From an uncultured Alphaproteobacteria bacterium (GTDB taxonomy: Bacteria; Pseudomonadota; Alphaproteobacteria; SHNJ01), in NCBI GenBank assembly GCA_964647725.1, contig CAZYJI010000001.1:74264-138263 (forward strand): DNA of 64,000 bases, written 5' to 3'. Position 1 is the stretch's first letter. Every line of letters begins with the position of its first letter. Positions 5,210 to 46,804 of this stretch are shown here, in pieces. The position numbers were made by a program, and so were the translations under genes. The notes under the pieces were generated by a model. It saw only the letters and a list, made by a program, of their open reading frames with translations. It was not told the origin of the DNA and did not search any database.

Positions 5210-5210
5210 G

Positions 5211-32030: not shown

Positions 32031-32051
32031 TGGTGCCGGAAGAGGACTCGA
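32031..32051. repeat. attL-like direct repeat (copy of tRNA-Leu 3' end, 1 indel)
   Basis: Sequence tggtgccggaagaggactcga matches 46718-46740 apart from one missing C. Confidence 0.75.
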
Positions 32052-32324
32052 TTAAGGCGTCTAAACTATTGATATTTATCATGATAATAGTATGATAAAT
32101 ATATAGTACCCCCACCGATACCCCCAGTAACATTAGCTGCCAGTATGGCACCAAGTTCTGGCAAGGCAGTAAACATCATGGGGTTTTGAAAGTCAATTTG
32201 TATCGGCCTTTTTTATTTTATCACCCCACCCCCGTGGCAGGAGGGGGGCGGGCAAAATCACTTTCCTGCCACCGATCTACAAAGCATCCCGCGAGGATTT
32301 TTAAAATTTTAAAATTGGCCTGCG

Positions 32325-32750
32325 ATGGAACAGATGACCGACTTCCCCTACCGTAGATTCGTTCAAATACCGATGCAACTGGTCATGTGCCACGACATGC
32401 ACGGCTCGGCCATGAAAACTTACGGTGCTCTATGCCTATTCGCGAATAAGAAGAACATATGCTGGCCCTCCATCCACACCCTCGCCCGCATCACAGGACT
32501 TTCTAAACGGCAAATAGCACGGCATTTGAAGGCGCTGGAGAAGAAGGAACTCATCATTATAAAACGGCGAGGTAAAAGCAGAGGCAAGCGCGGCGCAACC
32601 AGTGTCTATAAACTGGCTTTTGATTTTCGTGGCTCTTCCTTCATTTGGCAGCAAATTATGGCGGGCAGGCGACATGTATGGCAGGGAGAACCAAAAACAA
32701 ATCGGAAGACATGCGAATCTGAAGAAGGTTTGGGGGTCGTACACCTCTAA
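32325..32750 (+). CDS. Winged-helix HTH_36-like protein (island replication/regulatory protein)
   Basis: Motif ICWPSIHTLARITGLSKRQIARHLKALEKKELIIIKRRGK, the HTH_36 pattern common in integrative elements. Confidence 0.6.
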   Translation: MEQMTDFPYRRFVQIPMQLVMCHDMHGSAMKTYGALCLFANKKNICWPSIHTLARITGLSKRQIARHLKALEKKELIIIKRRGKSRGKRGATSVYKLAFDFRGSSFIWQQIMAGRRHVWQGEPKTNRKTCESEEGLGVVHL

Positions 32751-32893
32751 ATCATTGATTTACCTTGCAACCGTCGCGCGGGGATGAGTGCGCAGATATA
32801 ACAGCCTGTATTTGCCATTTTGTTGCTGTGTCCGCTCTGTACTCTTCCCATGCTCCTCCCATTCTTTCTTAGAAGTTAAGGGGCACAAGTAAA

Positions 32894-33160
32894 TTATTTT
32901 TTCTCAGTCAACGCTAGCAGTTCTTCCAGTTTTTCGGGATAGTCCAGGCCGAGAAAGTGTAGATAATCTAGAAACTCGAGCGCATCCATTCTGCGCTCGA
33001 ATCGCTCTATCTTTGACAATTGCCATTGGCCCAGGCCGGTCTGTTCGGCGATATCATTTTGCTTGATTCCCTGTTTTTTGCGCTCTTCCACCAGCCAATT
33101 GAGCAGGCGGCGGTAGCGCTTATCGTAAATCGTTGCAATCCTTGATTTTGTCTTGGCCAT
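32894..33160 (-). CDS. XRE-family HTH transcriptional regulator (island repressor candidate)
   Basis: HTH region LVEERKKQGIKQNDIAEQTGLGQWQLSKIERFER. Start taken at the internal Met (MAKTKS). Divergent from the lipoprotein operon. Confidence 0.65.
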   Translation of the reverse strand: MAKTKSRIATIYDKRYRRLLNWLVEERKKQGIKQNDIAEQTGLGQWQLSKIERFERRMDALEFLDYLHFLGLDYPEKLEELLALTEKK

Positions 33161-33232
33161 ACCCCTAGGGTTGCATGCCATTATAGCATATGCCAAAATA
33201 GCCAATATTTCACATAAATACGGGGTTAAATT

Positions 33233-33844
33233 ATGATTAGAGCAATAACTTTGGCGGCTATCTTATTATTAAGCGGATGCGTAACCACGCAGCGTTACGC
33301 GCAAAACTACACAACTATTGGCGAAGATCAGCAGGTTTGTGAACAGATTAATAAAGGTTTTCCGGAAATGGTGGATTGCCTCAATGAAAAAGTGACCCTT
33401 AAAGCCACGCAGCGAGGGCCGGATGTTGACTTGCAGCTGGCATATGTCACTAGGGCGCGCGCACTAGCGCAGAAAGTGCGCGACGGAAAGATTAGTGATA
33501 GCACCGCGCGCAAAACATTGGCCAAAGAGAAAGTTATCTTAGACGATCGCCTGGCCGAACGGCAAAATCAATATTATGAATCGCAACGACAAAAAGCGGC
33601 TGCGCCGGTACCAACCAACACTGACAATTTAGCTATTTTAAACTGCATTCAGGCCGCCAATTTAATTCCAAGATCGGGCGTAGGAGGTCCGGCTGCCGCT
33701 ATTGCTTCGTGCCACGAGAATCCTTATCGAGCAGAAGATAGATTTCAGCGGGAAAAAGAAGATATGGATCGCCGAAATCGAAAAATGATATGCAAGCCAG
33801 ATTACGCCGGTAAAGCTTTAGAATGTAGTGAGGAACCATTTTAG
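33233..33844 (+). CDS. Hypothetical Cys-rich lipoprotein
   Basis: Lipobox LLLSGC at residues 12-17 and several paired cysteines in the mature part. First gene of a three-gene + strand module. Confidence 0.55.
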   Translation: MIRAITLAAILLLSGCVTTQRYAQNYTTIGEDQQVCEQINKGFPEMVDCLNEKVTLKATQRGPDVDLQLAYVTRARALAQKVRDGKISDSTARKTLAKEKVILDDRLAERQNQYYESQRQKAAAPVPTNTDNLAILNCIQAANLIPRSGVGGPAAAIASCHENPYRAEDRFQREKEDMDRRNRKMICKPDYAGKALECSEEPF

Positions 33845-33846
33845 CC

Positions 33847-34089
33847 ATGACACGGAATCTAGTTTATGTTCCCGCCTCTTGTTACGATAAGAAAATATCT
33901 GAAAATTTAAAGTTAGCCCTTCTAAATTTGGCAAACCTTAAGCCTGAAGACTTGAAGCGCTTTACTTTCGTGGAAAGAATGATTCTTATCGACGAAGCCT
34001 TCTATGCCCTTAAGAAAGGAGTCTATAATAGGCTCGATGTTCTATCAGATGAAACAAACCAAAAATATGGTGCTCACGCCATTAAATAA
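33847..34089 (+). CDS. Hypothetical protein (80 aa)
   Basis: ORF 3 nt downstream of the lipoprotein gene. No recognisable motif. Confidence 0.4.
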   Translation: MTRNLVYVPASCYDKKISENLKLALLNLANLKPEDLKRFTFVERMILIDEAFYALKKGVYNRLDVLSDETNQKYGAHAIK

Positions 34090-34188
34090 CGTCTTGGATC
34101 AAGCCAACCCTGAACTCCAGAAATGCAATAGTAATGGCGATCTAAAACCATTTCCCTTATACTATTTGAAAATGTGCTTAGGTGAGCA

Positions 34189-35520: not shown

Positions 35521-35530
35521 TAAATTAATT

Positions 35531-35995
35531 TTAGGCCGCTTGCGCCGCTTCAATTTCAGCGAGATCCATTGCGAAATCAAAAACTATCTGGATTGGTTCC
35601 GCTTCCACATGCGCATCGTTGTAGCTGTCCACATCAGTTTTAAGTTGACGACAGTCTCCCACTATCGCTTGCCGTCTTTGCTGAAATGATATTTGCATAT
35701 GGTGTCTGGGAGCTGTGCGAATATCATCCCAAAGCACCATTTGTTCATCACCTTTGCGCGTAGAAGCAGGATGCAAGAGCCTTACACGACGCCCTTTTTT
35801 ATCCGTGATATATTCTTCACGCATAGCTGAAGCTACATCTTCCGCGCATTTGCTTATTGCGGCAGAAGCTGGAAGCTCCCAACGACCAGTGCGAATAGCC
35901 CAGGCCGCAATTGTTTTTGCAGCAGCAGGCCAAGGCTCACCCGAGCCTCTGTAGTCCTCAACAATTTTCTGCATTTGTTTAGTATATGTTGCCAT
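35531..35995 (-). CDS. Hypothetical protein (154 aa), downstream of higA-peptidase fusion
   Basis: ORF 10 nt after the HigA-like gene on the same strand. No motif recognised. Confidence 0.4.
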   Translation of the reverse strand: MATYTKQMQKIVEDYRGSGEPWPAAAKTIAAWAIRTGRWELPASAAISKCAEDVASAMREEYITDKKGRRVRLLHPASTRKGDEQMVLWDDIRTAPRHHMQISFQQRRQAIVGDCRQLKTDVDSYNDAHVEAEPIQIVFDFAMDLAEIEAAQAA

Positions 35996-36005
35996 AAGTG
36001 CTCTC

Positions 36006-37142
36006 CTATATGTTTATTGGTCCTGTGTGGCCATATCCGTCGGTAAGTGCGGACTGAATTATAATATGCCGTACTTTTAATTGATGCCTTCTGAATAAAT
36101 CCCATCGTTCCGTGCGCCTTTGTAACTGGCCAGCTACTATGCCTGGATGACGCTTAATTAGGCGCGCAAATCCAATCAAATTCTTTTCTGAATACATTGG
36201 ATCAAGACGAGCTATGAAATGCTTTATTTCTTTTTCCGGAACACAAAAATTACTAGCCGCTTGATTAGCTGCTTTTTCACAATCATTTGTATTGGAAGCA
36301 GGCTCATTTGCTTCAAACTCATCCACCATAATAGAATCTTTGCCATCCCCTCTAAGTACATGCTCAATCTCATGCCGAAGGGTAAACCAAAACCTATCTA
36401 TATAGTCTCCTTTAAGAGAGAGACCTATTACGGGAGAGTGTGCGTTCAGCCAGAAACACACCCCATCAATCTTTGATCCAGGAATAGGTTCTACTATTAC
36501 AAATCGTACCCCACATTCAGATAAAATCCCAGGAATGTGGCGCGCTTCTTCTGGCTCCGTCATTAGTAATTCAAGATTAACTAAAGCAGAACGCAATTTC
36601 TGTTCATTATATTTAGGAATTTGTAACGCAGTTGCCAAATGTTTTACACGAAAAATCCATGCGAGCTGTGCTGAGGAAAGATTCTCACTATAATTTCTCC
36701 GCGCGGCATGGGATAATTTCGGCATGTCATCTAAGGATGTAATACCAAAGAAATCAAGAACCCTAGTTTCTATTACTTCAAAGTTTTTTGAAGACTCAAT
36801 CCAGCCGCGCTTTATCATTTCTCGAACTGGAAATTTTTCACGAAGTTGGGCTTCTTTCCTAATTCTTTCAGGAACAGGATCGACGCGCGATAGTTGATAT
36901 GCAGATTCAAGATTGAGCCAAAATTCCGCACTAGTGCCAAATGCAGCAGCGATCGCTTGGGCTGTCTCCGGAGTGATGCCGCGCTTACCACTTATAATTT
37001 CGCTAATTAAGCGTGGCGGACGACCGATAATTTCGGCAAATTCTCCCTGATTCCAACCGCGCGCTTCTAGCTCGTCATGAAGATATTCTCCTGGTGGAAA
37101 TATCTCTGCTGGTTTTCTTTGTTTCATGGGTCTGTCTCTCAT
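36006..37142 (-). CDS. higA: HigA-like XRE HTH antitoxin fused to ImmA/IrrE-type (COG2856) zinc metallopeptidase domain
   Basis: N-terminus PGEYLHDELEARGWNQGEFAEIIGRPPRLISEIISGKRGITPETAQAIAAAFGTSAEFWLNLESAY matches the HigA family. The C-terminal domain carries an HEIEH zinc-binding motif. Confidence 0.7.
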   Translation of the reverse strand: MRDRPMKQRKPAEIFPPGEYLHDELEARGWNQGEFAEIIGRPPRLISEIISGKRGITPETAQAIAAAFGTSAEFWLNLESAYQLSRVDPVPERIRKEAQLREKFPVREMIKRGWIESSKNFEVIETRVLDFFGITSLDDMPKLSHAARRNYSENLSSAQLAWIFRVKHLATALQIPKYNEQKLRSALVNLELLMTEPEEARHIPGILSECGVRFVIVEPIPGSKIDGVCFWLNAHSPVIGLSLKGDYIDRFWFTLRHEIEHVLRGDGKDSIMVDEFEANEPASNTNDCEKAANQAASNFCVPEKEIKHFIARLDPMYSEKNLIGFARLIKRHPGIVAGQLQRRTERWDLFRRHQLKVRHIIIQSALTDGYGHTGPINI

Positions 37143-37147
37143 AATAA

Positions 37148-37477
37148 TCAGTGATAATCTGTAATTTCTATAACTCTAATCGTTTTCATCAGGGCGGTTT
37201 CATGCACTTCAATAATCAGCCGCCATTGATCATTTATCCTCAACGAATATTGATGCTTACGATCACCTTGCAATTTTTTAAAACGGAGGCCCCTTAATTG
37301 ATGCAAATCCTTTTCATCAGCAACGGCTCGAATAGCCTGCATGACTTTTCGGAACCCTTTGACTATCGGCTGGGAGAAGCCAGCCGTAAATTTCGGATCG
37401 GTTTCTAGTCGATCTAAATCAGCATCATCAAATTCAACTTCCATTTTCTTTATACCCTGTTTTTTTGGAATTGTCAA
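37148..37477 (-). CDS. higB: HigB-like RelE/ParE-superfamily toxin (plasmid maintenance system killer protein)
   Basis: C-terminal region GDRKHQYSLRINDQWRLIIEVHETALMKTIRVIEITDYH, typical of HigB. It sits upstream of its antitoxin with a 5-nt gap, the reversed TA order that is the HigBA hallmark. Confidence 0.7.
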   Translation of the reverse strand: MTIPKKQGIKKMEVEFDDADLDRLETDPKFTAGFSQPIVKGFRKVMQAIRAVADEKDLHQLRGLRFKKLQGDRKHQYSLRINDQWRLIIEVHETALMKTIRVIEITDYH

Positions 37478-37591: not shown

Positions 37592-38701
37592 TTAAGCTTT
37601 TGGACTTGCCACAATGGTTTTATCGTAGCCAGGGAATTTCTGCTTTAATCTTTCGACTGTCGCCCGCCATTTAGGTTTTGTAGGCTTACACACAGTGTTT
37701 TGATTACCAAAAAAACCTATTTCCTTAATTGCTTTTTCCAAAGACACGGCTTGAATCCATTCGATAGGCACGAAATATTCGCAGCGCTCAGGATCGTCCA
37801 AATATTCACGATGATAGCTGGCTCGTTTTACAACATCTAGCACTGGCATTTTGCCCTGGGAGGTGTCTACTTGGAATGTTGCGGCGGGCTGGACTCGGCC
37901 AATAGCGCGACCGACCCCAACATATCCAGAGCCGGGTATATTCACCCAAACACGGTCGCCGGGGTTAAGCAGTTGTAGGGTTTTGCTATACCATCTACCG
38001 CCCCCGCCACAAATGAATCCATATTGTACAGCATCCGCCCAAGACCGCACCTCACTTTCACCGAACGATGAATAAAATTCACCGTTCCAAGGTTCGCTTT
38101 GGTTATCCGGTGCAGTGGCGGCGCTAATTTGAGTTTGGGCCGGGTCTAACAACCAGGCGCGGCTTAGCAATTGATCGTCACCATAATTAAAAACCTGAAA
38201 GCAAACTACATTGATTGGAATATCGCGCTCGCTAAGATAGGCAATTATGCGTTCACTGCTTTCATCTATAGCCGAAGCAACCACAATAATTTGGTGGCTT
38301 TCGTTTAAAGATTCTTCATCCAATTCCTGGTTAAAACGCTTGTGGAAATCTTCCGCAAGATTGCCGCCTTTAGTAAACCGACTATAAATAGCATTGATAT
38401 TCTCGGGTTTTAATTTAGAAACCCAGCTTGCATAGTCAATCGCCTGCGCAACAACTTCGCGCGGGGTGCGGTCTCTCTTTAATTCTATCAATATCAGCAC
38501 GCCATCCGGCGCAATTGCCAATAAATCGATTCGCCCACCATAACCGGTGTCTTCTTGCCGACCAATAAACATCCAATTTTCGTCTAATATCCTAGGATCA
38601 GCAAGAATCATGTCTTCCAGCAATCTTTCGCTGGGCAGAATCGCCTCGATCAATGGCTGGGGTTGTTGACCAACTTTCCAAATGGCATGACGAATGGGCA
38701 T
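37592..38701 (-). CDS. NucS-like PD-(D/E)xK nuclease domain fused to PUA/EVE-like domain (candidate modification-reading nuclease)
   Basis: N-terminal half GGRIDLLAIAPDGVLILIELKRD is the NucS/RecB-type D...ExK core. C-terminal half GDRVWVNIPGSGYVGVGRAIGRV...YFVPIEWIQAVSLEKAI resembles the EVE/PUA-like fold. Lies 5 nt downstream of the MmeI-like gene. Confidence 0.5.
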   Translation of the reverse strand: MPIRHAIWKVGQQPQPLIEAILPSERLLEDMILADPRILDENWMFIGRQEDTGYGGRIDLLAIAPDGVLILIELKRDRTPREVVAQAIDYASWVSKLKPENINAIYSRFTKGGNLAEDFHKRFNQELDEESLNESHQIIVVASAIDESSERIIAYLSERDIPINVVCFQVFNYGDDQLLSRAWLLDPAQTQISAATAPDNQSEPWNGEFYSSFGESEVRSWADAVQYGFICGGGGRWYSKTLQLLNPGDRVWVNIPGSGYVGVGRAIGRVQPAATFQVDTSQGKMPVLDVVKRASYHREYLDDPERCEYFVPIEWIQAVSLEKAIKEIGFFGNQNTVCKPTKPKWRATVERLKQKFPGYDKTIVASPKA

Positions 38702-38706
38702 GAGTT

Positions 38707-41700
38707 TTAGCCCGCTGCTTCTGGCAAGAAACTAATTTTATCTATTTCTTGCATAGTTTTTGCGGTTTCGGCTAGCGCCACAATTATGCGCTGCCAATGA
38801 CGAATGTCTTCAATAGTCAATTTTCGGTCTTTTCGGTCTTTCAGCCATTTTTGTGCAGGCTGATAACCGCCAATATAAAAATCCCAGGCTTCTTGTGGCA
38901 CATTGCCAAAGTATTGAGAGTCATTAATCCATACTTTGCCTTTTTCAAAACGTTGTTTTTTAACTTCATGCAGCCCATCAACCGGATATGTGGTAATTTG
39001 AGTATCCAATCTTGGACTTTCCATTAAATGCAACTCACGCAAATAAGCGCCTTTCTCTGCTAATCCATGAAAAATCTTAGTGTTCGTTGGGTAAGGAATA
39101 TAAGGAAAGTCTGACTTCAAAAACTCAGCATAGCGCTTACGATAGGTGGGGCTGTGGAGTACTGCATAGACATAATCAAACAAAGCCTCTGGCGTGGTGT
39201 CAGGAACTGTTTTCTTGATTTGGCCGAAGATTTTAGGATCGAGATTGGGTCTTCTTTGTTCTTTGCTTTGAAGCCCTTCCCCATAAAGCCAAAGGGGATA
39301 ATATAAACAAATACCTTTATTGCTGATGAAGGTACGGTTATCAATTAGTTCTCTACTAACAAAGCTATAACAATAATCCGGCACATTGTAGGCATAGTGT
39401 CTCATACTCAACAAACCGAGATTCTCTCCCGCACAAAAGTGGCGCATGACTTCTGGTCTAGGCATACATAGGAAACCACGAGATTGCCCCGTGTAATAAG
39501 TCCAGCGCGTATCGAAAGGTCGATAGCTAATAGCTCTGATATTATCAGGATTTAAGCCAGTATTCTTCAAATCATTCTGCGCCCACTCCACCCGCCAATC
39601 TCGCACATCCTTACCCAAATTGTATTCTTGGCGCGCATCTTCTATTGGCAGCATGCTAAAATTTTGAATGGTACGGATAAGATCATCGCGCTTTTCATGA
39701 ATAGTCAATTCATCCCGCGCCGTAACGATACCAACGGAATTGATGGGGAACAAAACATTCAAGGCAAAGCCTTTGTGATATTCAGCGCCTGATTTGTTAT
39801 CTTGGGGAATAAAAAAATAAAACGGCGCACGTAGAACCAGTTGTTTAAATGGCAGTTTGTTAATGCTGCCTATTTGTAGTGCATCATATTTGTTTTCGCG
39901 GCTGCCCCATAAATCGGCATGAAAAACCCTAGCTAGTTGCTTTTGTGTTTTTCCAGTTGGTTTGGCCTTAACCGCGATAATTATTGCTACTCCTTGTTGA
40001 ATATCAAACACATTCTTATCAGGCTTGCCATCAGGGGATGTTTCTTTTTGCTTTGCATTACCGTGTAAATCCAGAACATAGATATCATCAAAAGTGTTCA
40101 GTAAATGCCAGCGCATACCACGAAAAGTAGGATTATTTAGATATCCATGATTGGTTATATAAGCCAAAATTCCTTCCGCATTTTTTTGTATATAATGCTC
40201 TCCGAGACGTATGAATTTTACATAATCATCATTTAGCCATTTGGAGTTTCTTTCTTTAAGCTTGCCCCCGCTAGGCTCCTGTTTATATGCATTCATCAAG
40301 CCCATAATCCAATCACCCTTATTGGCACTTTCGCCACTATAGGGAGGGTTGCCGATAGCCACCATAATAGGCATATCTTTTTTGATGCGGCTGGCTTCGT
40401 TAGCTTCCCGGGATAGCCAGTTGGCAAACAAGGTATCAACATCAGGGTGGTACTCTTCAAGACTGTTCGTTAGATAAACACTTAAGCGCGGAGGATTATT
40501 GGCGTTAGATGGCTTGTAACCGGTTTCCTGTAGCAATAGATCTAGCTTCATATGACACATAGCATAAGAAGCCATTAACAATTCAAACCCGTGCATGCGC
40601 GGCAACAAATCGCGCTCAATATAGCTGCTCCATAAACCCTCTTGTCCTTGGAATTTTTTATAAATTTGTTTAATGATTTCGGCTAGGAAAGTGCCGGTGC
40701 CTGTGGCTACGTCCAGAAGCTGAACTTTATGTACTTCACGCACTTCCATTTTGCGACCAGTTTTAGTTCGTTGATCTTTTTCTTGTGATTCTATTTCAAT
40801 ACTAACTTTACTGGTATCAGCCAGCCCGTCTTTAAGATTAAAATGTTTTTTCAACACATCATCAACGGCACGAACAATAAAATTCACTACTGGTTCCGGC
40901 GTGTACCATACCCCCCGCGCCTTACGGAGGGACTTATCGTATTCCGCGAGAAAAGTTTCATAAAAATGAAGGATGGGGTCGTTCTGTCCCGTGGCTGTCC
41001 CGAAATCATGCAGGATAGATGGAAGATCGGTATAGCGATACACCTCGCACAGTGCGTCGATAATCCAAATAACGCGATCATCTAATTCAGGGCCGGCTAT
41101 ATAATGAAATAATTGTCTTAGAAATGGATTGCTTTTAGGGATTAAGGTCAAGGCCTCTGCGCGGGAAAAATCATGTAAGCTTTTATCATGTAAACGTGCA
41201 GTAAATAAACCATAAGTGATCGTTTGGGCATAGACATCTGCAAATTGTTTCGCATCCATGTCATGAACTAGTACTTTCTGAAATGCCGTTAATTGATCAT
41301 GTAGGGAGGTGTTCTCATTGCTTTCCAAAAGAGCTTTATGAAATACATCACGCATTAGGCGCGCTTTACGCGCCATCATCTCGGCCAATTTTTTAGCCGA
41401 TTTAATCGTTTGGCCTTGGAAAGCAGCAAAATCAATCAAGTGGTCTTTGAGACGATTATAATTTTCAGGTATCGAATTAATTTTCCCAGACGGGCCTATT
41501 TCGCCTATCCGGATCGTTTCAACTTTTTTGCCGTGCAAGAAAAATCGAAATTCAAGATAGTCCGTTAGAATCAAATTATCTAAGCTATCAAAATAACGCT
41601 TTAGTTGATCGTCTTTCTCGGCTTTATCTAGATTGATCCCTATATCTTTAGCCTCGATATAACCAACATCAATTTTACGTCGGGTCAAAATAAAATCAGG

Positions 41701-41856
41701 CGCGCCGCATTCGATACGTTTAGGATCATTTGTCGCCATAACATCCGGCATAATAGCTTCGACAAGGATTTGTAATGCTGGACGGTAAGCATGCTCCCCC
41801 GCTATGCCGGAAGCGTGGCGCTTTTTAAGATCGTCAACATATATATTGAAGGGCAT
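38707..41856 (-). CDS. MmeI-family type IIL (type IIG) restriction-modification enzyme, single-chain endonuclease + N6-adenine MTase + TRD
   Basis: 1049 aa. N-terminal PD-ExK motif (APDFILTRRKIDVGYIEAKDIGINLDKA...YF) parallels the MmeI D70/E80/K82 region. MTase motif I is LLDVATGTGTFL and motif IV is NPPYSG. The long C-terminal region is consistent with a TRD. Confidence 0.72.
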   Translation of the reverse strand: MPFNIYVDDLKKRHASGIAGEHAYRPALQILVEAIMPDVMATNDPKRIECGAPDFILTRRKIDVGYIEAKDIGINLDKAEKDDQLKRYFDSLDNLILTDYLEFRFFLHGKKVETIRIGEIGPSGKINSIPENYNRLKDHLIDFAAFQGQTIKSAKKLAEMMARKARLMRDVFHKALLESNENTSLHDQLTAFQKVLVHDMDAKQFADVYAQTITYGLFTARLHDKSLHDFSRAEALTLIPKSNPFLRQLFHYIAGPELDDRVIWIIDALCEVYRYTDLPSILHDFGTATGQNDPILHFYETFLAEYDKSLRKARGVWYTPEPVVNFIVRAVDDVLKKHFNLKDGLADTSKVSIEIESQEKDQRTKTGRKMEVREVHKVQLLDVATGTGTFLAEIIKQIYKKFQGQEGLWSSYIERDLLPRMHGFELLMASYAMCHMKLDLLLQETGYKPSNANNPPRLSVYLTNSLEEYHPDVDTLFANWLSREANEASRIKKDMPIMVAIGNPPYSGESANKGDWIMGLMNAYKQEPSGGKLKERNSKWLNDDYVKFIRLGEHYIQKNAEGILAYITNHGYLNNPTFRGMRWHLLNTFDDIYVLDLHGNAKQKETSPDGKPDKNVFDIQQGVAIIIAVKAKPTGKTQKQLARVFHADLWGSRENKYDALQIGSINKLPFKQLVLRAPFYFFIPQDNKSGAEYHKGFALNVLFPINSVGIVTARDELTIHEKRDDLIRTIQNFSMLPIEDARQEYNLGKDVRDWRVEWAQNDLKNTGLNPDNIRAISYRPFDTRWTYYTGQSRGFLCMPRPEVMRHFCAGENLGLLSMRHYAYNVPDYCYSFVSRELIDNRTFISNKGICLYYPLWLYGEGLQSKEQRRPNLDPKIFGQIKKTVPDTTPEALFDYVYAVLHSPTYRKRYAEFLKSDFPYIPYPTNTKIFHGLAEKGAYLRELHLMESPRLDTQITTYPVDGLHEVKKQRFEKGKVWINDSQYFGNVPQEAWDFYIGGYQPAQKWLKDRKDRKLTIEDIRHWQRIIVALAETAKTMQEIDKISFLPEAAG

Positions 41857-42022: not shown

Positions 42023-44128
42023 TTAATTCTTTTCTTTCTGGGCTTCGCTTTCTGCAACTGAACGTTTTTGTTCCCCACAAAACTCACGAATGGCAGCGCG
42101 TTCTTCATATTCGTATAATGATCCATTGCTGGATTTAGCCGCCACAGCGCCACATGCAAGGTTCTCAAAGCTTTCTTGTGTTGCGGGGGCAGTCATTTGA
42201 GATTTATTGGGGACAGTTTCCGCCACGTCCCATTCGTCAGAAAGCGTAGGTTGTGGCGTTGTGGCGGCTGGAGCCTGCCCTCCCTCTAAATAACGCGCAA
42301 AAGCATCTGAGAATTGTGAAATCTCATATCCTTTAGGAGTGTTATAACTATCCAGTCTGACGGTCTTACTTTTAATCCCAAATGGCTTTAATATCATAGC
42401 TACATGGTTCGGGGTTATTGGCTTGTCACGCTTCCAACTCACCCATGGGCGTTCTTCATCTCTGCATAGAAAATCAATCAGAGAGACGGTTGAAATTTTA
42501 TCTCCCAGAACTTCAAAAGCAGCCTTGATGTCCCGAAGCATTTCTGTACCTACACTGGTGACATCTGGCCCTTCTTTTGACAAAGCAATAGCCGCATCAA
42601 AAGCTTTCTTTTGCCACCGGCTTCCTGCCAGAAACGCAATTGCAAGTAAAGGTTCCCAATTATCCGCACCACGGTCTGATAAACTATCTGGTAAAACCGG
42701 TTTGAGTGATGAAAGTGCCTGAATACTATCATCCGCCAGCCTTTTTAGTTGCGATCTAAACTTCTCAAATGAATCTTGGTTTACATCGCGTAATTTCTGC
42801 ACTTTTTCCGATTTTAATTTGCGGCGTAACTCAATGATAATTGACCGGTCACGTAGCGTATCATAAAGATCCCCGATTAAAGCAATAACCTTTGCTCCCC
42901 AAGTACTGAATTTTTTGGGTTCATGCTCATCCCCGACTGAACGAATGACAAAAGCAGTGGTGCGCGTATGCCCAGAATTAATAATGCCACGCAATTCATC
43001 TTTGCCTGCCAGAAAAGTATCAGCTTCGTCTATTAAAAGAGTAGGTTTACATAATTCAATTGTGCGAAACATTGCTGCGGGAGTTATATTAGCGGCAGGA
43101 AGCGGCTTGTTTACTAACCCATTAATTGCGGAAATTAAAGAAGTTTTTCCACACCTTTTTTCTGGGGAGCAGATAGCCAAAATTGGCGCAGTATGAAAAG
43201 CATCAATTACCCAAGTAAACAACACCCATAAAGTTACCGCAGTTTTGCTGTGTTTTGAAAGTATAACAAGAGAATCTATTATTGTAGCTATCTCATCAAA
43301 TAGCGCTGCGGCATCAACAGGTTCTGGCCATGGCTCTATTTCGGGAAAATCAAAGCCGCCTCTATTATGCTGACTTTGGGGAAATATGCGTTGCTCTTTG
43401 ACTTCTTGATCTAAGACAGATCTTCGTATTCCCAAACTAGCAGCATGTCGTGTTCTGACCCGGTCATATTCGATAGGTGATAAAGCGGCCAACTGACGTA
43501 CAATATTGGCTAGATTAATTTCTTCATTGTTAGCAAGTGTCGATATTAAGGGCGCATTTTCAACCCAATCCAAAAGATTTTTTTCCTGAAACTCAAATGG
43601 AAGTAAGTCAGCTAAGTCCCATTTCGGAGGCAAGCCTTCAGGCAACTGAACGATTCTAATTGATTTAGCCCCAATTGTGGCAAGTTGGTTGACTATAATT
43701 GAAGCATATTTTTTCCCTGCTTCATCGTTATCGGGCCAAACGACGGTGTCTCGCCCAGCTAAAGTTGACCAGTCAGTTTTATGCGCAGCTTGAGAGCCGA
43801 AGCTACTTGTTACAATAACACAGTGAGGAAAAAATCTTCTGGCTGCTTCTGCCGCTTTCTCACCTTCCACAATAATTACTAGCGCATCGTGTTTTTCAAT
43901 AATTTCAAGCAGATTATACAGCGGGCGCAATTCTGGAGCTTTAATTATCCAACGGCCATCTAGGAATGACCATGGCCTAAATTCTTTCTCTTCTTTGCCG
44001 CTAGTATTAACCTTGTTATAGCGCGTCACTACAAACGATAACTCGCCTCTTGCATCAAAATATTCCCATGCGCCAGCAAACTCTCCAATTTTAGGCTGCT
44101 GAAGCAGCTTTGAATAATCTTTTGTCAT
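42023..44128 (-). CDS. TOPRIM primase / P-loop NTPase (P4-alpha-like, DUF3987-type) replication protein
   Basis: TOPRIM acidic motifs (IIVEGEKAAEAA, VVWPDNDEAG) in the N-terminal 150 aa. Walker A (PEKRCGKTSLISAI) and Walker B-like LLIDEADTF in the central domain. Confidence 0.7.
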   Translation of the reverse strand: MTKDYSKLLQQPKIGEFAGAWEYFDARGELSFVVTRYNKVNTSGKEEKEFRPWSFLDGRWIIKAPELRPLYNLLEIIEKHDALVIIVEGEKAAEAARRFFPHCVIVTSSFGSQAAHKTDWSTLAGRDTVVWPDNDEAGKKYASIIVNQLATIGAKSIRIVQLPEGLPPKWDLADLLPFEFQEKNLLDWVENAPLISTLANNEEINLANIVRQLAALSPIEYDRVRTRHAASLGIRRSVLDQEVKEQRIFPQSQHNRGGFDFPEIEPWPEPVDAAALFDEIATIIDSLVILSKHSKTAVTLWVLFTWVIDAFHTAPILAICSPEKRCGKTSLISAINGLVNKPLPAANITPAAMFRTIELCKPTLLIDEADTFLAGKDELRGIINSGHTRTTAFVIRSVGDEHEPKKFSTWGAKVIALIGDLYDTLRDRSIIIELRRKLKSEKVQKLRDVNQDSFEKFRSQLKRLADDSIQALSSLKPVLPDSLSDRGADNWEPLLAIAFLAGSRWQKKAFDAAIALSKEGPDVTSVGTEMLRDIKAAFEVLGDKISTVSLIDFLCRDEERPWVSWKRDKPITPNHVAMILKPFGIKSKTVRLDSYNTPKGYEISQFSDAFARYLEGGQAPAATTPQPTLSDEWDVAETVPNKSQMTAPATQESFENLACGAVAAKSSNGSLYEYEERAAIREFCGEQKRSVAESEAQKEKN

Positions 44129-44355
44129 TTTCTTGCTCCCGGGTCGTTAATTAAGCCCAGTTTCTGTAAGGATATTTTTACTTCAACTTGCGAACAACCA
44201 GCAAAACAATGCCAAAGCAGTTTCCCATTTTTTTCCGCGATAGACAAAGAAGGGGATCTATCATTATGAGCGGGGCAACAAGCTTTGCCACGCTTGCCAT
44301 CCCATTGGCCTTTTAGTTTAAGAGTTACTTCTTCTGCGCTATATTTTTTACACAT
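44125..44355 (-). CDS. CHC2-type zinc-finger protein (primase zinc-binding domain, separate ORF)
   Basis: Motif CPAHNDRSPSLSI...WHCFAGC matches the DnaG-type CHC2 zinc ribbon. The stop overlaps the TOPRIM gene start (ATGA). Confidence 0.6.
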   Translation of the reverse strand: MCKKYSAEEVTLKLKGQWDGKRGKACCPAHNDRSPSLSIAEKNGKLLWHCFAGCSQVEVKISLQKLGLINDPGARK

Positions 44356-44401
44356 GATAATCCTTCATGTCGCTGTGCACTGCAACGCTATCGGCATTTC
44401 T

Positions 44402-44620
44402 TTATTGATTGCTGACAGCAACAGAATTTAGGAATTTCTGGATATCAGATACGCGCCACGCAGTAATGCGTTCGCTTAGCTTGACAGGTTTTGGGTATCG
44501 GCCGGTTTTTATGCCTTCCCAGAAGGTCGATTTGCTAACCGGTATAAGCTTTAAAACGTCCGGCAGCCTTAAATAGCCGTCATTATCAAGGGTATTATTG
44601 GTTTTCATAGGTTGCTCCAT
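44402..44620 (-). CDS. alpA: AlpA-family phage regulatory protein / excisionase-like DNA-binding protein
   Basis: Motif YLRLPDVLKLIPVSKSTFWEGIKTGRYPKPVKLSERITAWRVSDIQKFL matches the AlpA/prophage CP4-57 regulatory family. Confidence 0.75.
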   Translation of the reverse strand: MEQPMKTNNTLDNDGYLRLPDVLKLIPVSKSTFWEGIKTGRYPKPVKLSERITAWRVSDIQKFLNSVAVSNQ

Positions 44621-44703
44621 CCAGTTGAATCTGGTTGGATTCTATGAGAGCCGTGATAGGCCCTGGGCGAATTCGCCTAAATAAAAAGCGAATTCGCCTT
44701 TTA

Positions 44704-45345
44704 TTATTCTTTGGATTCTTCTGCTATATACTCCACTGACGCATCAGCATGTTTTCTTATAGTTCCATCATCCATGGAAAACCCACAGGCTTGAATACGG
44801 TTACTTATTTTCCCTACAGCCTCTCTGCTCGGATAACCATAATGGCTTTTCAAAATACAGCCCAAAATTTTCATAAGCGATTTATTTTCTTTAGCCAAAG
44901 AGGCTTGATTTACGATTTTTTGTAATTGCTCTTTAAGCTTTTCATTCTCTTCCATTAAAACATTGCATTGGGCTTTGTAATCTACAGCGGATAATTTCTT
45001 CTTTTCATATGCGGCCATCAATGCTTTCGGAGGCGCGATGCCCCTCTGTATTAGCCAGTCAACAAATTTTATGGCTGAAACAAGCCCTATTTGCTCCTTG
45101 AAAATATTATCTCCAGACCTTTCCATAACCCTCAAGAGTTTTTGTGAGTAACTAGGAAGCTGGCTAGGATAATTAATCACCTTAGTGCCATAAGGATTTA
45201 GATTTATATTATCTTCATCTGGATTATGCCCATATGCCAATAACGCTGCTTCGGAAAGACTCCAATAATCCGAGGCCATCCAATCTTCGTAATTTATGTT
45301 ATGATGAAAAGTATCCAATACTTTAGTTTCGTCAAATTTAGGCAT
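44704..45345 (-). CDS. Hypothetical coiled-coil protein (213 aa)
   Basis: ORF between alpA and int with a central coiled-coil (QCNVLMEENEKLKEQLQKIVNQ). Confidence 0.45.
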   Translation of the reverse strand: MPKFDETKVLDTFHHNINYEDWMASDYWSLSEAALLAYGHNPDEDNINLNPYGTKVINYPSQLPSYSQKLLRVMERSGDNIFKEQIGLVSAIKFVDWLIQRGIAPPKALMAAYEKKKLSAVDYKAQCNVLMEENEKLKEQLQKIVNQASLAKENKSLMKILGCILKSHYGYPSREAVGKISNRIQACGFSMDDGTIRKHADASVEYIAEESKE

Positions 45346-45346
45346 T

Positions 45347-46570
45347 TTATGAGACCCTTTTTCTATTCTTAAATGCTACTACGCGGCCAGTATCAGCAAT
45401 AACCGAATCAACATAATCCGCCCATTGCTGCATCATCTTCTTCCGCTCTGGCAAATATTCAGCGCGGTTATACGCGGCGCGGACACTATTGCGCTCTTTA
45501 TGCGCTAGCTGCCGCTCTATTACATCCGGTTTAAAGCCAAGTTCATTCAATGTGGTAGAAGCAAGCGCGCGGAATCCATGGCCCACCAGCTTTCCTTTAT
45601 AGCCCATCCTTTGCAGCACTTGATTAATTGCGTTTTCGCTTATCATTGGATTTTTTCGCCGTTGGTAAGATGGAAGCAGCAGCTCAGAGCGTCCCGTTAA
45701 TTTTCTCAATTGTTGCAAGAGTTTTATGACTTGTTTGGAAAGCGGTACGATGTGCTCTCTGCGCATTTTTGTGGCATGAGCTGGCATAATCCAGACATTG
45801 TCTTTGAAATCAAAATCCGTCCATTTAGCGTGGCGCAGTTCGCCCTGCCGAACAAATGTAAAAAGCAGAATTTTAATAGCCAGCCGGATTTCTTCTGCCG
45901 TGCCTACAGTTTCCAGCTTGTGCCAGAGTTGAGGGATTTCTTTCGCATTGATGGTTGGATAATGACTCGCCTTATGAGCTTTAAGCGCTCCCCGCAAGTC
46001 AGCCGCAGGATTATATTCGGTGCGACCGGTTGCGGTAGCATATCGAAAAATAACCGAACAGGTCTGCAACACACGATGCGATAACTCTGTTGCATCCCGT
46101 TTTTCTACCTTCCGTATAACGTCCAGTAATTCGACAGGTTTAATGTTTTTGACCGGCACATGGCCAAGAAAGGGAAATATATTGGCTTCTAAGCGCCTCA
46201 AAATCTTGGCGCTATGCGCTTTTGTCCATTGGACTTGATTGGCTGCATGCCACTCCAAGGCAATAGCTTTAAAGCTATTATTGGCGTCAAATTGCGCCAT
46301 ACGCTTATCTTCGCGCCGTTTTAGGCTTGGATCAATTCCATTAGCTAGCTGTTTCCGCACTTCCAGGCGCTTTTCCCGCGCTTCGGATAGGCTAACTTCG
46401 GGATAGGCCCCAAAGGTCAAAAGCTTCTCTTTACGATGGTAGCGGTACTTAAAGCGCCAGATTTTCGAGCCTTTAGGGGTCACATAGAGAAATAACCCTT
46501 CTCCATCCGCAATCTTTTGGGGTTTGGCTGTCGGCTTGACATTACGAATTTTGGTGTCGGTGAGGGCCAT
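45347..46570 (-). CDS. int: P4-type tyrosine integrase (DUF4102 N-terminal + phage_integrase catalytic domain)
   Basis: N-terminus LTDTKIRNVKPTAKPQKIADGEGLFLYVTPKGSKIWRFKYRYHRKEKLLTFGAYPEVSLSEAREKR is the DUF4102 arm-binding domain. The C-terminus has the R...HxxR...Y catalytic pattern (HGFRALASTT...RAAYNRAEY). Confidence 0.88.
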   Translation of the reverse strand: MALTDTKIRNVKPTAKPQKIADGEGLFLYVTPKGSKIWRFKYRYHRKEKLLTFGAYPEVSLSEAREKRLEVRKQLANGIDPSLKRREDKRMAQFDANNSFKAIALEWHAANQVQWTKAHSAKILRRLEANIFPFLGHVPVKNIKPVELLDVIRKVEKRDATELSHRVLQTCSVIFRYATATGRTEYNPAADLRGALKAHKASHYPTINAKEIPQLWHKLETVGTAEEIRLAIKILLFTFVRQGELRHAKWTDFDFKDNVWIMPAHATKMRREHIVPLSKQVIKLLQQLRKLTGRSELLLPSYQRRKNPMISENAINQVLQRMGYKGKLVGHGFRALASTTLNELGFKPDVIERQLAHKERNSVRAAYNRAEYLPERKKMMQQWADYVDSVIADTGRVVAFKNRKRVS

Positions 46571-46717
46571 AAGGATATCCGTTTATACCCCCAACGATAC
46601 CCCCAAATGTGCCGGATGTCAACCGACCCCCTCGGACATCAGCGGACGTAAAAACCTTATTTTATCTATGTTAAAATGATTCTGTCGGATGTCATCGGAC
46701 ATCCTCGGAGGGAGTAA

Positions 46718-46804
46718 TGGTGCCCGGAAGAGGACTCGAACCTCCAAGATGTTACTCACTGGTACCTGAAACCAGCGCGTCTACCAATTCCGCCATCCGG
46801 GCGC
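46718..46804 (-). tRNA. tRNA-Leu (anticodon CAG)
   Basis: Minus-strand read: GCGCCCGGAUGGCGGAAUUGGUAGACGCGCUGGUUUCAGGUACCAGUGAGUAACAUCUUGGAGGUUCGAGUCCUCUUCCGGGCACCA. It has a 7-bp acceptor stem, an anticodon loop UUCAGGU (CAG), a long variable arm, GGUUCGAGUCC in the T-loop and an encoded CCA. Confidence 0.85.

Follow-up and report, generated by a model that had tools for sequence, protein, structure and literature searches.

What kind of element occupies the tRNA-Leu(CAG) gene of this uncultured alphaproteobacterium, and how might it move? The window (the whole 64-kb stretch of DNA analysed here) contains a 14,687-bp block in this gene. We show that this is an island, integrated site-specifically and polymorphic in its presence or absence, and a real yet fairly ordinary kind of element. 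Judged by its sequence, it carries its own predicted genes for integration, excision and replication, together with several putative anti-phage systems. The reading we favour, at slightly better than even chances, is that of a site-specific integrative island with a P4-type integrase, AlpA, DUF3631-based replication and a defence hotspot, transferred in helper particles that it does not remodel.

Boundaries and empty sites

One tRNA-Leu(CAG) gene was detected with ARAGORN and Rfam (Table 1), and its 3′-terminal 22 nt, TGGTGCCCGGAAGAGGACTCGA on the + strand, constitute the attR core. A first-pass annotation had described a 21-bp repeat bracketing the island. The repeat is indeed found at both ends, in copies of 22 nt and 21 nt that differ by a 1-nt indel, and the right-hand copy ends at 46739, one base before the island end then given (46740). 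By our own estimate, about 0.03 exact 16-nt matches would be expected by chance in 15 kb. The match is placed exactly at the 3′ end of the tRNA. The missing base could lower excision; the sister island described below has a perfect 22-bp copy at attL.

Inside each core lies a pair of TACCCCCA motifs, candidate arm-type sites for the integrase. The two pairs share the same orientation and account for all four copies in the window, where 0.93 would be expected; the attL pair is kept in the sister island. In their pairing, they resemble the tandem 12-bp arm repeats that flank the core of P4 attP on both sides. The inverted repeat ATATTTATCAT / ATGATAAATAT, of which the core ATTTATCAT/ATGATAAAT is likewise retained in the sister island, is possibly a protein-binding site.

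Six conspecific metagenome contigs from several samples (L009, L010, L012, L013, L014 and L016), with flanks 99–100% identical to those of the window, join the left flank straight to an intact tRNA gene, providing the exact empty site for which a search in relatives had been suggested. In L014, the flank match (99.96% identity) and the tRNA match (100%) have exactly the 22 bp of the core in common. L011, an independent contig assembled from a different sample, runs through the same attL junction into a related island with other cargo; it is 96.7% identical to the window as far as position 32845, diverges beyond, and has a cation-efflux-like gene instead of defence genes. That near-identical genomes differ precisely in having or lacking the island argues for recent movement. 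As had been noted, the island is also AT-richer than its surroundings (GC 43.2% versus 49.7% in the rest of the window; mean GC3 0.40 versus 0.57).

Table 1. Features of the island and its target gene, in window coordinates
Feature	Position	Strand	Basis
attL core, 21-bp copy of tRNA 3′ end, one C missing (CC vs CCC)	32031..32051		sequence and repeat analysis
Perfect 11-bp inverted repeat, just inside attL	32072..32102		direct sequence reading
Pair of TACCCCCA motifs (12 bp apart), candidate arm-type sites for the integrase, 56 bp inside attL	32107..32126	+	repeat family D9, 95% identical
HTH_36 / RepC-N-like winged-helix protein, 141 aa, adjoins attL	32325..32750	+	Pfam HTH_36 7.7e-15, RP-C; PHROG replication-initiator N-terminal regions
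XRE-family HTH regulator, divergent from lipoprotein / 80-aa / Ea47 operon	32894..33205	-	Pfam HTH_3, HTH_19
Predicted lipoprotein, 203 aa	33233..33844	+	signal peptide with lipobox LLLSGC; weak phrog_6067 match
80-aa ORF between lipoprotein gene and Ea47 homologue	33847..34089	+	no family matches
Ea47 homologue (phage lambda), 443 aa	34189..35520	+	
154-aa protein, triad gene 3	35531..35995	-	conserved neighbourhood
HigA-type HTH fused to M78 (ImmA/IrrE) peptidase, 378 aa, triad gene 2	36006..37142	-	Pfam HTH_3, Peptidase_M78; TIGR02607 HigA; PADLOC PD-Lambda-2_B 1.7e-46
HigB-like RelE-fold toxin gene, triad gene 1	37148..37477	-	Pfam HigB-like_toxin 2.1e-9
PDC-S11 protein, 369 aa, NucS-like PD-ExK nuclease with tentative C-terminal YTH/EVE-like domain	37592..38701	-	PADLOC PDC-S11 6.6e-157; NucS_C
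Single-chain type IIG/IIL R-M enzyme, 1049 aa	38707..41856	-	PADLOC REase_MTase_IIG 1088 bits; Pfam Type_ISP_C 5.8e-86, N6_Mtase, Eco57I
Toprim primase fused to DUF3631 (RepAM-type) P-loop module, 701 aa, replication protein	42023..44128	-	Pfam DUF3631 7e-40, Toprim; PHROG DNA primase/helicase
CHC2 zinc-finger ORF (primase zinc-binding domain), 76 aa	44125..44355	-	Pfam Zn_ribbon_DnaG
AlpA-family excisionase/activator, 72 aa	44402..44620	-	Pfam Phage_AlpA 4.1e-9; PHROG excisionase and transcriptional regulator
Pair of GGCGAATTCGC palindromes (21 bp apart), 83-bp gap 5′ of alpA	44666..44698		inverted-repeat analysis (I3)
213-aa int-contiguous gene	44704..45345	-	ATG 1 nt after int stop codon
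P4-type tyrosine integrase, 407 aa	45347..46570	-	Pfam Arm-DNA-bind_3, Phage_int_M, Phage_integrase
Pair of TACCCCCA motifs (12 bp apart), candidate arm-type sites for the integrase, 113 bp inside attR	46586..46605	+	motif search
attR core, 22 bp, tRNA 3′ end including CCA	46718..46739		direct sequence; repeat D16; overlap of both matches in empty-site contigs
tRNA-Leu(CAG), integration target, intact post-integration	46718..46802	-	ARAGORN; Rfam tRNA, 53 bits

Integration, excision and replication genes

The integrase had been called P4-type on the strength of DUF4102, now named Arm-DNA-bind_3, and its 42% identity to P4 Int over 406 aa (E 1e-107) agrees with this. The AlpA assignment is likewise borne out, by the Pfam and PHROG matches and by similarity to P4 ORF88 (Vis; E 1.6e-9). 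The 213-aa gene contiguous with int, absent from the first-pass list, encodes a protein with no matches in Pfam, PHROGs, NCBIfam or PADLOC. It occupies the position of the PICMI iolg/icg gene, and PICMI iolg is required for excision (PMC10803314); an ORF likewise begins close to the int stop (-4 to +18 nt) in 9 of 22 related islands. Of the two GGCGAATTCGC palindromes, the first forms a terminator-like hairpin with a T-run after the 213-aa gene. The pair, which alone falls short of statistical significance, is a candidate operator.

In the 701-aa primase, the family-invariant motifs are all in place (Toprim E88-G-E90 and D133-x-D135, Walker A GKT, Walker B DEAD), as are C27, H30, C50 and C54 of the zinc-finger ORF, which overlaps the primase gene by 4 nt (ATGA). 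A separate zinc-finger ORF lies upstream of the primase in 10 relatives as well. This arrangement had been described as a P4-like split primase. Both parts exist, the CHC2 ORF and the Toprim/P-loop protein, but the likeness is one of function only, since BLASTP finds no similarity between the 701-aa protein and P4 alpha.

Among the best 80 DUF3631 relatives in GTDB genomes, an integrase homologue lies 2–4 kb upstream on the same strand in 45, alpA is present in 20, and a tRNA or tmRNA is directly upstream in at least 24. Exact att repeats were located for four relatives, with sizes of 6.8–15.7 kb; minimal relatives of 6.8–7.9 kb share this backbone and lack phage genes. Five IMG/VR contigs of 8–12 kb with DUF3631 relatives bear terminal direct repeats of 88–127 bp, which suggests circular or concatemeric molecules. 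In two of these (L102 and L120), genes for an integrase and a major head protein are present as well; L097 has int-alpA-pri alone. Among 5.8 billion proteins, no other exceeds 44% identity to the island primase, and the relatives bearing head genes are therefore distant.

A variable defence cargo

The hotspot is the region from the primase gene to the distal att end, and none of its cargo genes is conserved in relatives. In 24 related islands, ORFs 3′ of the primase matched 310 PADLOC models, including PtuA, SoFic and type I R-M, versus 10 generic models for host-side ORFs beyond the tRNA (E<=1e-10; the tally counts redundant PADLOC models, not genes). The stacked defence cargo claimed for the present island is recovered by PADLOC, which matches REase_MTase_IIG, PDC-S11 and PD-Lambda-2_B in the distal part.

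The R-M enzyme combines a PD-ExK nuclease, a gamma-class N6-adenine methyltransferase and a target-recognition domain, with the motifs PD...EAK, VATGTGTF and NPPY. Of its earlier assignment to MmeI-family type IIL enzymes, the type (IIG/IIL) stands on PADLOC and Pfam, but the family does not: neither the MmeI Pfam models nor the MmeI structure is matched, and the complete enzyme is nearest DrdV and type ISP, with PDB matches to DrdV (7lo5), LlaBIII and LlaGI. The PDC-S11 protein retains catalytic residues D59...E73-x-K75 and is predicted to be a modification-dependent nuclease; PDC-S11 is listed as a candidate defence gene only. It had been read as a NucS::EVE-like fusion. NucS_C supports the first part; the second has a single source, a Foldseek search with a low-confidence model (pLDDT 46.7) whose top 26 matches are YTH/EVE structures, and we assign this C-terminal fold tentatively.

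Both members of the reported HigB/HigA-peptidase pair are present, but they form a conserved triad with a 154-aa third gene that had been missed. In 62 of 66 related loci, a HigB homologue immediately precedes the peptidase gene, and in 63 of 68 a homologue of the 154-aa protein (identity ≤76%) directly follows it. The 154-aa protein has no match in Pfam, PADLOC or PDB sequences. The gene layout is like that of PD-lambda-2, although only one of the three PD-lambda-2 models is matched; we propose that the triad is a PD-lambda-2-like module of abortive-infection type.

Near attL, the XRE gene is divergent from three ORFs, as had been observed, but one of these supposedly unknown genes is the lambda Ea47 homologue. 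The 203-aa protein is predicted to be a lipoprotein from its sequence motif, and the 80-aa ORF is without family matches and shows no homology to the ORF of equal length that precedes the Azospirillum Ea47 homologue. The HTH_36 gene, overlooked in the first-pass list, is common to the island and its L011 sister.

Modes of transfer and likeness to known elements

Gene families suggest the following life cycle. The P4-type integrase would bind the core and the paired TACCCCCA arm sites; excision would be switched on by AlpA, possibly with the 213-aa protein; and the circular form would be replicated by the zinc-finger and Toprim/DUF3631 primase-initiator. It is very likely that the island is still capable of excision and replication. 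The type IIG/IIL enzyme would cut unmodified foreign DNA, and the NucS-like nuclease with its tentative modified-base-reader fold, encoded directly downstream, would cut modified DNA. The XRE regulator would control the module of lipoprotein and Ea47 homologue. Transfer from cell to cell would most likely proceed in helper-phage particles without capsid remodelling, as for PICMI and marine VEIMEs. Helper-phage transfer is the least certain step; the island itself encodes nothing for transfer, packaging or capsids.

It is also possible, with a likelihood of roughly one in three, that the island integrates, excises and replicates yet is no phage satellite, and moves rarely by vesicles, transformation or conjugative mobilisation, or passes by vertical descent. 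If so, the TA-like triad and the R-M enzyme would be addiction modules. R-M and TA modules stabilise islands, which fits this account, as does the cation-efflux-like gene that L011 bears in place of defence genes. So does the lack of packaging or hijacking genes: in line with the earlier claim that no capsid-redirecting genes are present, PHROG and P4 comparisons found no terS, capsid-morphogenesis or psu/sid/delta genes among the island ORFs. Further, the one paper found on DUF3631 (PMC3218068) assigns it, as the RepAM replication initiator, to actinomycete integrative conjugative elements rather than to satellites, and tycheposons, which follow the same tRNA, integrase, excisionase and primase logic, show enrichment in vesicles and in capsids alike (bioRxiv 10.1101/2020.12.28.424599). 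However, the island has no relaxase, coupling protein, FtsK/Tra or recognisable oriT, AlpA-driven int/primase elements without other mobility genes are experimentally proven satellites (PICMI, PMC10803314), and head genes do occur on the distant DUF3631 elements.

A decayed prophage remnant, or a static island without remaining mobility, is improbable. The 1-nt deletion in the attL core and the Ea47 homologue would suit it, but the backbone ORFs are all full length with intact catalytic motifs, no structural, lysis or other phage genes or gene fragments are found in the island, and both the presence/absence pattern and the phage-gene-free minimal relatives speak against it. A true P4-like satellite, remodelling the capsid of a P2-like helper, is very improbable, despite the homology of integrase and AlpA to their P4 counterparts. 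P4 also integrates in a tRNA-Leu gene, a target that the island shares. Membership of the P4-like family is nevertheless refuted at the sequence level: BLASTP and tblastn found no homologue of psu, sid, delta, epsilon, cI or alpha, core components number two of seven (three counting the analogous primase), and P4-like elements are almost restricted to Enterobacterales (PMC10085698), whereas the host here is an alphaproteobacterium. Least credible of all is that assembly or binning created the island artificially, by fusing a foreign contig with the chromosome at the repeated tRNA sequence: the source is a metagenome-assembled genome and the right-flank short-read contigs all break within the tRNA, but a chimeric join would yield neither another, incomplete copy of the tRNA at the opposite end nor matching paired arm motifs inside both ends, and L011, an independent contig from a different sample, crosses the same attL junction into a related island.

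Returning to transfer in unremodelled helper particles, we infer that the island is a satellite. The int-alpA-pri trio earlier named as a satellite backbone is present at the tRNA-proximal end, but by the respective membership tests the island does not qualify as a P4-like satellite, a PICI of type A or B, or a PICMI. The authors of SatelliteFinder term int, alpA and primase alone a 'Type C PICI' and do not accept such elements as satellites (PMC10085698); with only these genes, satellite status is therefore unproven. In PICMIs, which are smaller (about 6 kb versus 14.7 kb), the set int, iolg, alpA and prim is enough, with defence genes located between prim and the far att (PMC10803314). It is this layout that the island, with its int, int-adjacent gene, alpA, primase, cargo hotspot and distal att, matches most nearly.

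Occupancy of the tRNA-Leu(CAG) site

The first-pass annotation had read this region as a tRNA-integrated, P4-like island carrying defence genes, and that reading was essentially right: the island and its defence cargo are real. As it had stated, direct copies of the tRNA-Leu 3′ end bracket the island, the left one at 32031-32051; the right copy ends at 46739, not at 46740, and the copies (22 versus 21 nt) differ by a 1-nt indel. Between the two cores the island measures 14,687 bp. Its AT-rich composition and T/A-ending codons are likewise confirmed, with a GC content of 43.2% versus 49.7% in the remaining window and a mean GC3 of 0.40 versus 0.57 in 15 flanking genes. A second, smaller GC dip (0.40–0.43) is found at window positions 27000-28500, at a gap of about 400 bp between KpsF-like and DUF1800 genes; no mobile-element genes were seen there. 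The window also encodes a bacterial small SRP RNA (Rfam RF00169, 46.5 bits; 11671-11766, minus strand), which is unrelated to the island.

The first reading had suggested looking in relatives for an empty tRNA-Leu site, and such sites were found. Exact-protein look-up of two flanking host genes led to short-read metagenome contigs from several samples (the left-flank exonuclease was looked up from its ATG start, the listed TTG start being wrong). In six contigs (L009, L010, L012, L013, L014 and L016), an intact tRNA is joined straight to the left flank. The flank of L014 is 99.96% identical to the window and its tRNA part 100% identical; the 22-bp core is exactly what the two matches have in common. 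Precise empty sites exist in the same species. The same host flank also occurs in contig L011, recovered from another sample, where it runs into a perfect 22-bp attL and on into the HTH_36 gene (96.7% overall identity). L011 departs from the island at window position 32845, into a gene for a cation-diffusion-facilitator-like (cation-efflux-like) membrane protein (L011:1-463) that stands in place of the XRE/Ea47 module. L011 represents a sister island in this site with different cargo; related islands therefore swap cargo at this tRNA site, and that cargo is not always defence. The empty-site and sister-island contigs were obtained from SRR27901409, SRR27901410, SRR12398185, SRR28520271, SRR28520276, SRR33541897 and SRR35571890. 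On the right flank, all eight metagenome contigs end inside tRNA-Leu, within 3 nt of each other (window 46772-46774), as expected if the assembly graph branches at a polymorphic site or if the tRNA sequence is repeated in the genome. The host is an uncultured alphaproteobacterium, whose RpoN and HPF share 90% clusters with proteins of Alphaproteobacteria MAGs. A single tRNA site with filled, empty and alternative-occupant states in near-identical populations makes a clean natural test case.

A megablast search with the island against E. coli genomes, plasmids and phages matched only the tRNA and a 57-bp R-M fragment, and every island protein is a singleton in its 90% cluster. Neither the primase nor the integrase was on record by exact-protein look-up, so a second copy of the island was not found. 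An Rfam scan of the island returned nothing besides the tRNA, and a search of the island for iterons or tandem arrays that might mark a replication origin found none. Promoter-like sites are no commoner than in shuffled sequence, and terminator-like sites are somewhat above it (24 versus 15.3, sd 3.9). Four copies of the octamer TACCCCCA are present in the 64-kb window (0.93 expected). All four fall in two same-orientation pairs (12 bp apart), one pair 56 bp in from attL and the other 113 bp in from attR. In P4, the attP core is flanked on each side by tandem 12-bp arm repeats; by analogy, the pairs at both island ends can be read as candidate arm-type sites for the arm-binding domain of the integrase.

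Backbone and cargo genes

Features of the island and of its two ends, in window coordinates
Feature	Coordinates	Strand	Remarks
attL core	32031-32051		21-nt copy of tRNA 3′ end, one C of CCC run missing
HTH_36 / RepC-N-like winged-helix protein	32325-32750		adjoins attL; also in sister island L011
XRE gene	32894-33205		faces three plus-strand ORFs
203-aa predicted lipoprotein		plus	lipobox LLLSGC
80-aa ORF		plus	in XRE module
443-aa lambda Ea47 homologue		plus	PF26900 (precomputed); phrog_19262, 3e-43
Triad	37477-35531		HigB, HTH + M78 peptidase, 154-aa protein
PDC-S11 protein	37592-38701		begins 5 nt downstream of R-M gene
R-M enzyme	38707-41856		1049 aa, single chain
701-aa replication protein		minus	Toprim + DUF3631 P-loop module
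76-aa CHC2 zinc-finger ORF		minus	C27, H30, C50, C54; ATGA overlap with next gene
AlpA		minus	Pfam Phage_AlpA; homologue of P4 Vis/ORF88, E 1.6e-9
Two GGCGAATTCGC palindromes, 21 bp apart	44666-44698		in 83-bp gap between 213-aa gene and alpA
213-aa ORF, no assigned function		minus	ATG 1 nt past int stop codon
Integrase	45347-46570	minus	Arm-DNA-bind_3, Phage_int_M, catalytic domain
attR core	46718-46739		tRNA-Leu 3′-terminal 22 nt, TGGTGCCCGGAAGAGGACTCGA on plus strand
tRNA-Leu(CAG)	46718-46802	minus	sole tRNA gene in window

The backbone reads outward from the tRNA and lies wholly on the minus strand. Its integrase and P4 Int share 42% identity over 406 aa (E 1e-107). The GGCGAATTCGC palindromes could be a candidate operator controlling alpA; GGCGAATTCGC is also found once elsewhere in the window (52639), which makes the statistics weak. 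The primase is split, as first described, into the 76-aa zinc-finger ORF and the 701-aa replication protein. In the latter, Pfam recognizes DUF3631 and Toprim and nothing else; the Toprim motifs (E88-G-E90, D133-x-D135) and the DUF3631 Walker A (GKT) and Walker B (DEAD) motifs do not vary among 25 aligned family members. It is nearly certain that the island is a mobile integrative, self-replicating element.

Among the cargo, the R-M enzyme had been assigned to the MmeI family of type IIL enzymes. The type holds and the family does not, since no MmeI Pfam model is matched; nor was MmeI returned by a PDB sequence search. We call it a predicted type IIG/IIL enzyme, DrdV-like. It matches PADLOC REase_MTase_IIG at 1088 bits, and the Pfam matches at E ≤ 0.01 are Type_ISP_C (5.8e-86), N6_Mtase and Eco57I alone. 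In the PDB search, the methyltransferase and recognition region matched DrdV, LlaBIII and LlaGI (E 6e-35 to 2e-35). With PD...EAK (D54, E68, K70) at the N-terminus and VATGTGTF and NPPY in the methyltransferase, one chain combines a PD-ExK nuclease, motifs I and IV of a gamma-class N6-adenine methyltransferase and a recognition domain, resembling the type IIL enzyme DrdV (1029 aa) in size and single-chain layout. Pfam finds no helicase domain, hence no helicase-like ATPase motor, and the enzyme is therefore not type ISP, unlike LlaGI and LlaBIII.

The neighboring 369-aa product, S11, matches PDC-S11, a PADLOC candidate single-gene system, at 6.6e-157 (residues 1-357 on model positions 1-355 of 358). 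It had been described as a fusion of a NucS nuclease with an EVE-like domain. The NucS-like PD-ExK core is evident (D59...E73-x-K75); the EVE-like part is plausible and not secure. The C-terminal domain has no Pfam EVE match. When an AF2 model of S11 was compared with the PDB by Foldseek, the top 26 matches were all YTH/EVE domains (E 6e-4 to 0.2), including YTHDF2, PH1033, THYN1 and 2eve; the model is poor (mean pLDDT 46.7), and the result is thus only a lead. Type IV restriction systems usually combine a nuclease with a reader of modified bases, and S11 beside the R-M enzyme would cover phages that escape by DNA modification. S11 stands alone in two other genomes, so its adjacency to the R-M gene here reflects stacking rather than a fixed system. 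It has more than 5,000 homologues; the 120 listed matches (including P0244-P0362) are 68–74% identical and span Chloroflexota, Acidobacteriota, Planctomycetota, Nitrospirota and Proteobacteria. Such conservation across distant phyla is unusually strong for a presumed defence gene.

The HigB/HigA-peptidase pair of the first-pass annotation is present and incomplete: a conserved third gene, for a 154-aa protein, belongs with it. We surveyed 80 metagenome loci with relatives of the peptidase protein (45–68% identical). Of the 66 loci that extend far enough upstream, 62 have HigB immediately before the peptidase gene, and 63 of 68 have a homologue of the 154-aa protein immediately after it. This gene order is shared with PD-lambda-2 (Vassallo et al. 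2022, PMC9519451), made up of a HigB-like protein A, an HTH-peptidase B and a third protein, C. B is toxic alone and is neutralised by A, and C, which is "related to a P4 phage antitoxin", is required for defence (PMC9519451). The HTH + M78 peptidase matches PADLOC PD-Lambda-2_B (1.7e-46, model positions 61-396 of 402) as well as TIGR02607 HigA. Unlike this protein, the other two have no match to their PD-lambda-2 models. HigB matches Pfam HigB-like_toxin (2.1e-9) and does not match PD-lambda-2 A in PADLOC even at E ≤ 10; the 154-aa protein has no match in PADLOC (E ≤ 10, including PD-lambda-2 C), Pfam or PDB sequences, and its family profile likewise matches no PDB sequence. As a model match was found for B alone, we call the triad PD-lambda-2-like, with a different third component. 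On these profile searches, the 154-aa protein represents a different, undescribed family. The triad, kept in about 93% of the 80 loci sampled, is a conserved three-gene unit with a new third component, one that extends the PD-lambda-2 type of system.

At the attL end, a divergent XRE gene faces three genes that had all been listed as unknown; the layout is as described, and one of the three is a homologue of lambda Ea47 (33% identity over 344 aa by BLASTP, E 2e-47). In lambda, ea47 is flanked by the tail-fibre genes on one side and by ea31/ea59/int on the other, and our literature search found no function described for it. Among isolated phages Ea47 is found only in lambda-like records, and a pattern scan of IMG/VR found no relatives. 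Azospirillum oryzae (L133:1-7377) has an Ea47 homologue within a few kb of a prophage tape-measure gene, an accessory-gene position that resembles that of ea47 in lambda. A comparison of Ea47 homologues elsewhere showed no conservation of their neighbors and hence gave no evidence for a system made up of the lipoprotein, the 80-aa ORF and Ea47. The presence of an Ea47 homologue among defence genes does provide a lead for lambda Ea47.

The DUF3631-primase island family

Homologues of the replication protein number more than 1,877, with 44% identity in the best non-self match, and a scan of species-representative genomes confirmed at least 490 DUF3631-primase loci. Among the best 80 of these at least 490 loci, an integrase homologue lies 2–4 kb upstream on the same strand in 45, alpA is present in 20 and a separate zinc-finger ORF in 10, and in at least 24 a tRNA or tmRNA gene immediately precedes int. 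The targets include Ser, Glu, Phe, Arg, Leu, Tyr, Cys, Ala and SeC tRNAs as well as tmRNA. Exact att repeats, searched within the flanks, were found in 4 of 24 relatives and delimit islands of 6.8, 7.9, 9.2 and 15.7 kb. The 6.8-kb island (L039) holds little beyond genes for an integrase, an excisionase, a Toprim protein and a DUF3631 protein, plus a 264-aa ORF that overlaps int. An ORF of 154–324 aa begins -4 to +18 nt from the int stop in 9 of 22 relatives; the int-adjacent ORFs of relatives are almost all mutually unrelated.

Recurrence of the island's own cargo genes was looked for in relatives, and none was found. We also compared ORFs of at least 150 aa on either side of the backbone in 24 related loci with PADLOC (E ≤ 1e-10). 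Downstream of the primase 310 models were matched, versus 10 generic ones upstream of the tRNA, where 310 counts models rather than genes and is inflated by redundant R-M models. The contrast between the two sides is clear, and the downstream matches include Septu PtuA (8e-271), SoFic, PDC-M48B and type I R-M subunits.

Relatives of the DUF3631 protein in IMG/VR are distant (35–48% identity). Five of the contigs that carry them, 8–12 kb in length, have terminal direct repeats of 88–127 bp, which suggests circular or concatemeric molecules and forms a further, indirect link to satellites; one of the five has a terminase large subunit match. Two of the five, L102 (11.1 kb; 3861-5189) and L120 (8.2 kb; 4325-5674), each encode an integrase, a DUF3631 protein and a major head protein; they resemble satellites that share this replication module and encode a capsid. 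Locus L097 has int-alpA-pri only.

The DUF3631/RepAM module marks a very widespread and under-described set of tRNA/tmRNA-targeting int-alpA-primase elements. The published satellite models considered here (P4-like, PICI, PICMI) do not accept such an element or put it in the rejected "Type C". It is possible, and we put this forward tentatively, that islands with int, an int-adjacent gene, AlpA, in some cases a zinc finger, and DUF3631 form a very large, cross-phylum family of minimalist satellites with many tRNA/tmRNA sites and a defence hotspot beyond the primase, and that the present island carries two undescribed immune modules. If so, the published SatelliteFinder models considered here would not capture the family as accepted satellites. 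The immune modules would be the PD-lambda-2-like triad, with its new third component, and the Ea47-family protein, with a HEPN-like domain; an immune role for the latter family would be the first functional lead for a lambda gene without an assigned function. Defence-loaded islands and phage satellites are well known, and the general picture is therefore unsurprising. Three by-products stand out as most useful: the triad and its conservation, the defence context of the Ea47 homologue, and how large the little-described DUF3631-primase island family is.

Relation to satellites and other integrative elements

Phage P4 integrates at the 3′ end of a tRNA-Leu gene. The island shares this target with P4, along with a homologous integrase and AlpA/Vis and candidate paired arm-type repeats, and to this extent the description of its core as P4-like was apt. 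The primase does not fit that description: P4 alpha shows no similarity to the island by BLASTP or tblastn (best E 6.3), and the Toprim + DUF3631 protein is a functional analogue. Cargo lies between psu and int in P4, whereas in the island it lies beyond the primase. No significant match to psu, sid, delta, epsilon (Ash) or cI was found by BLASTP or tblastn; together with the PHROG scan, this agrees with the first reading that psu/sid/delta-like capsid-redirecting genes are absent. The P4-like test has seven core components and the PICI test five (PMC10085698). Of the former, the island has the integrase and the AlpA-type regulator; only these two are homologous to P4, and membership among P4-like elements is rejected. 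P4-like elements carry a defence hotspot, according to work cited in PMC10803314.

Of the PICI components, the island has the integrase, an AlpA/Stl-type regulator and a primase-replicase. PICI types A and B need a capsid-morphogenesis gene and a small terminase subunit, and the island is without both: there was no PHROG or Pfam match to terS or to head or packaging genes, in a PHROG scan that covered 10 island proteins, including all ORFs without other assignment, and that remote structural homologues could escape. By predicted gene content the island would fall in PICI "Type C" (integrase, AlpA-type regulator and primase-replicase), which the authors of SatelliteFinder do not accept as satellites (PMC10085698), and not in types A or B.

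By inference, the island most likely spreads as a satellite in the manner of PICMIs or VEIMEs. The main rival is that it is a non-satellite integrative element, moving by other routes or rarely. In actinomycete integrative conjugative elements such as pMEA300, replication is initiated by RepAM, a DUF3631 protein; the single paper that a full-text literature search found to name the domain concerns these elements (PMC3218068). Elements of the pMEA300 type share with the island this Pfam replication family and a tyrosine integrase. However, they belong to the Actinomycetales and carry an FtsK/SpoIIIE-type transfer gene, whereas the island is without a transfer gene.

Satellite spread is the preferred reading, and marine VEIMEs and cargo-carrying tycheposons, which are environmental integrative elements, resemble the island in being small and in having a tyrosine integrase, an excisionase or AlpA and a primase/helicase (PMC9618062; bioRxiv 10.1101/2020.12.28.424599). 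Often inserted in tRNA genes, they have no capsid genes, and their cargo includes R-M or abortive-infection genes. Tycheposons have a distinct integrase clade, whereas the island's integrase is P4-type. VEIMEs are defined by concatemers inside virions (PMC9618062).

[quoted passage not shown] In these, int, an int-overlapping or contiguous gene, alpA and prim suffice for phage-induced excision and replication; there are no capsid genes, packaging is as concatemers, and defence genes lie between prim and the distal att (PMC10803314). Mobilisation of PICMIs by a virulent helper phage has been demonstrated, whereas for the island it is a proposal. The two hallmarks of PICMIs differ here: they integrate next to fis and have a DUF3987/DUF5906 primase, whereas the island sits in tRNA-Leu(CAG) and has a CHC2 zinc finger with Toprim and DUF3631; it is also larger (14.7 kb) and comes from an alphaproteobacterium. 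In judging PICMI the best match, we rely on shared organization. Both have the order int, int-adjacent gene, alpA, primase, cargo or defence genes and distal att. Capsid-remodelling and packaging genes are absent from PICMIs, and none were found in the island. Finally, the int-adjacent genes of PICMIs, like those of the island's relatives, fall into many unrelated families.
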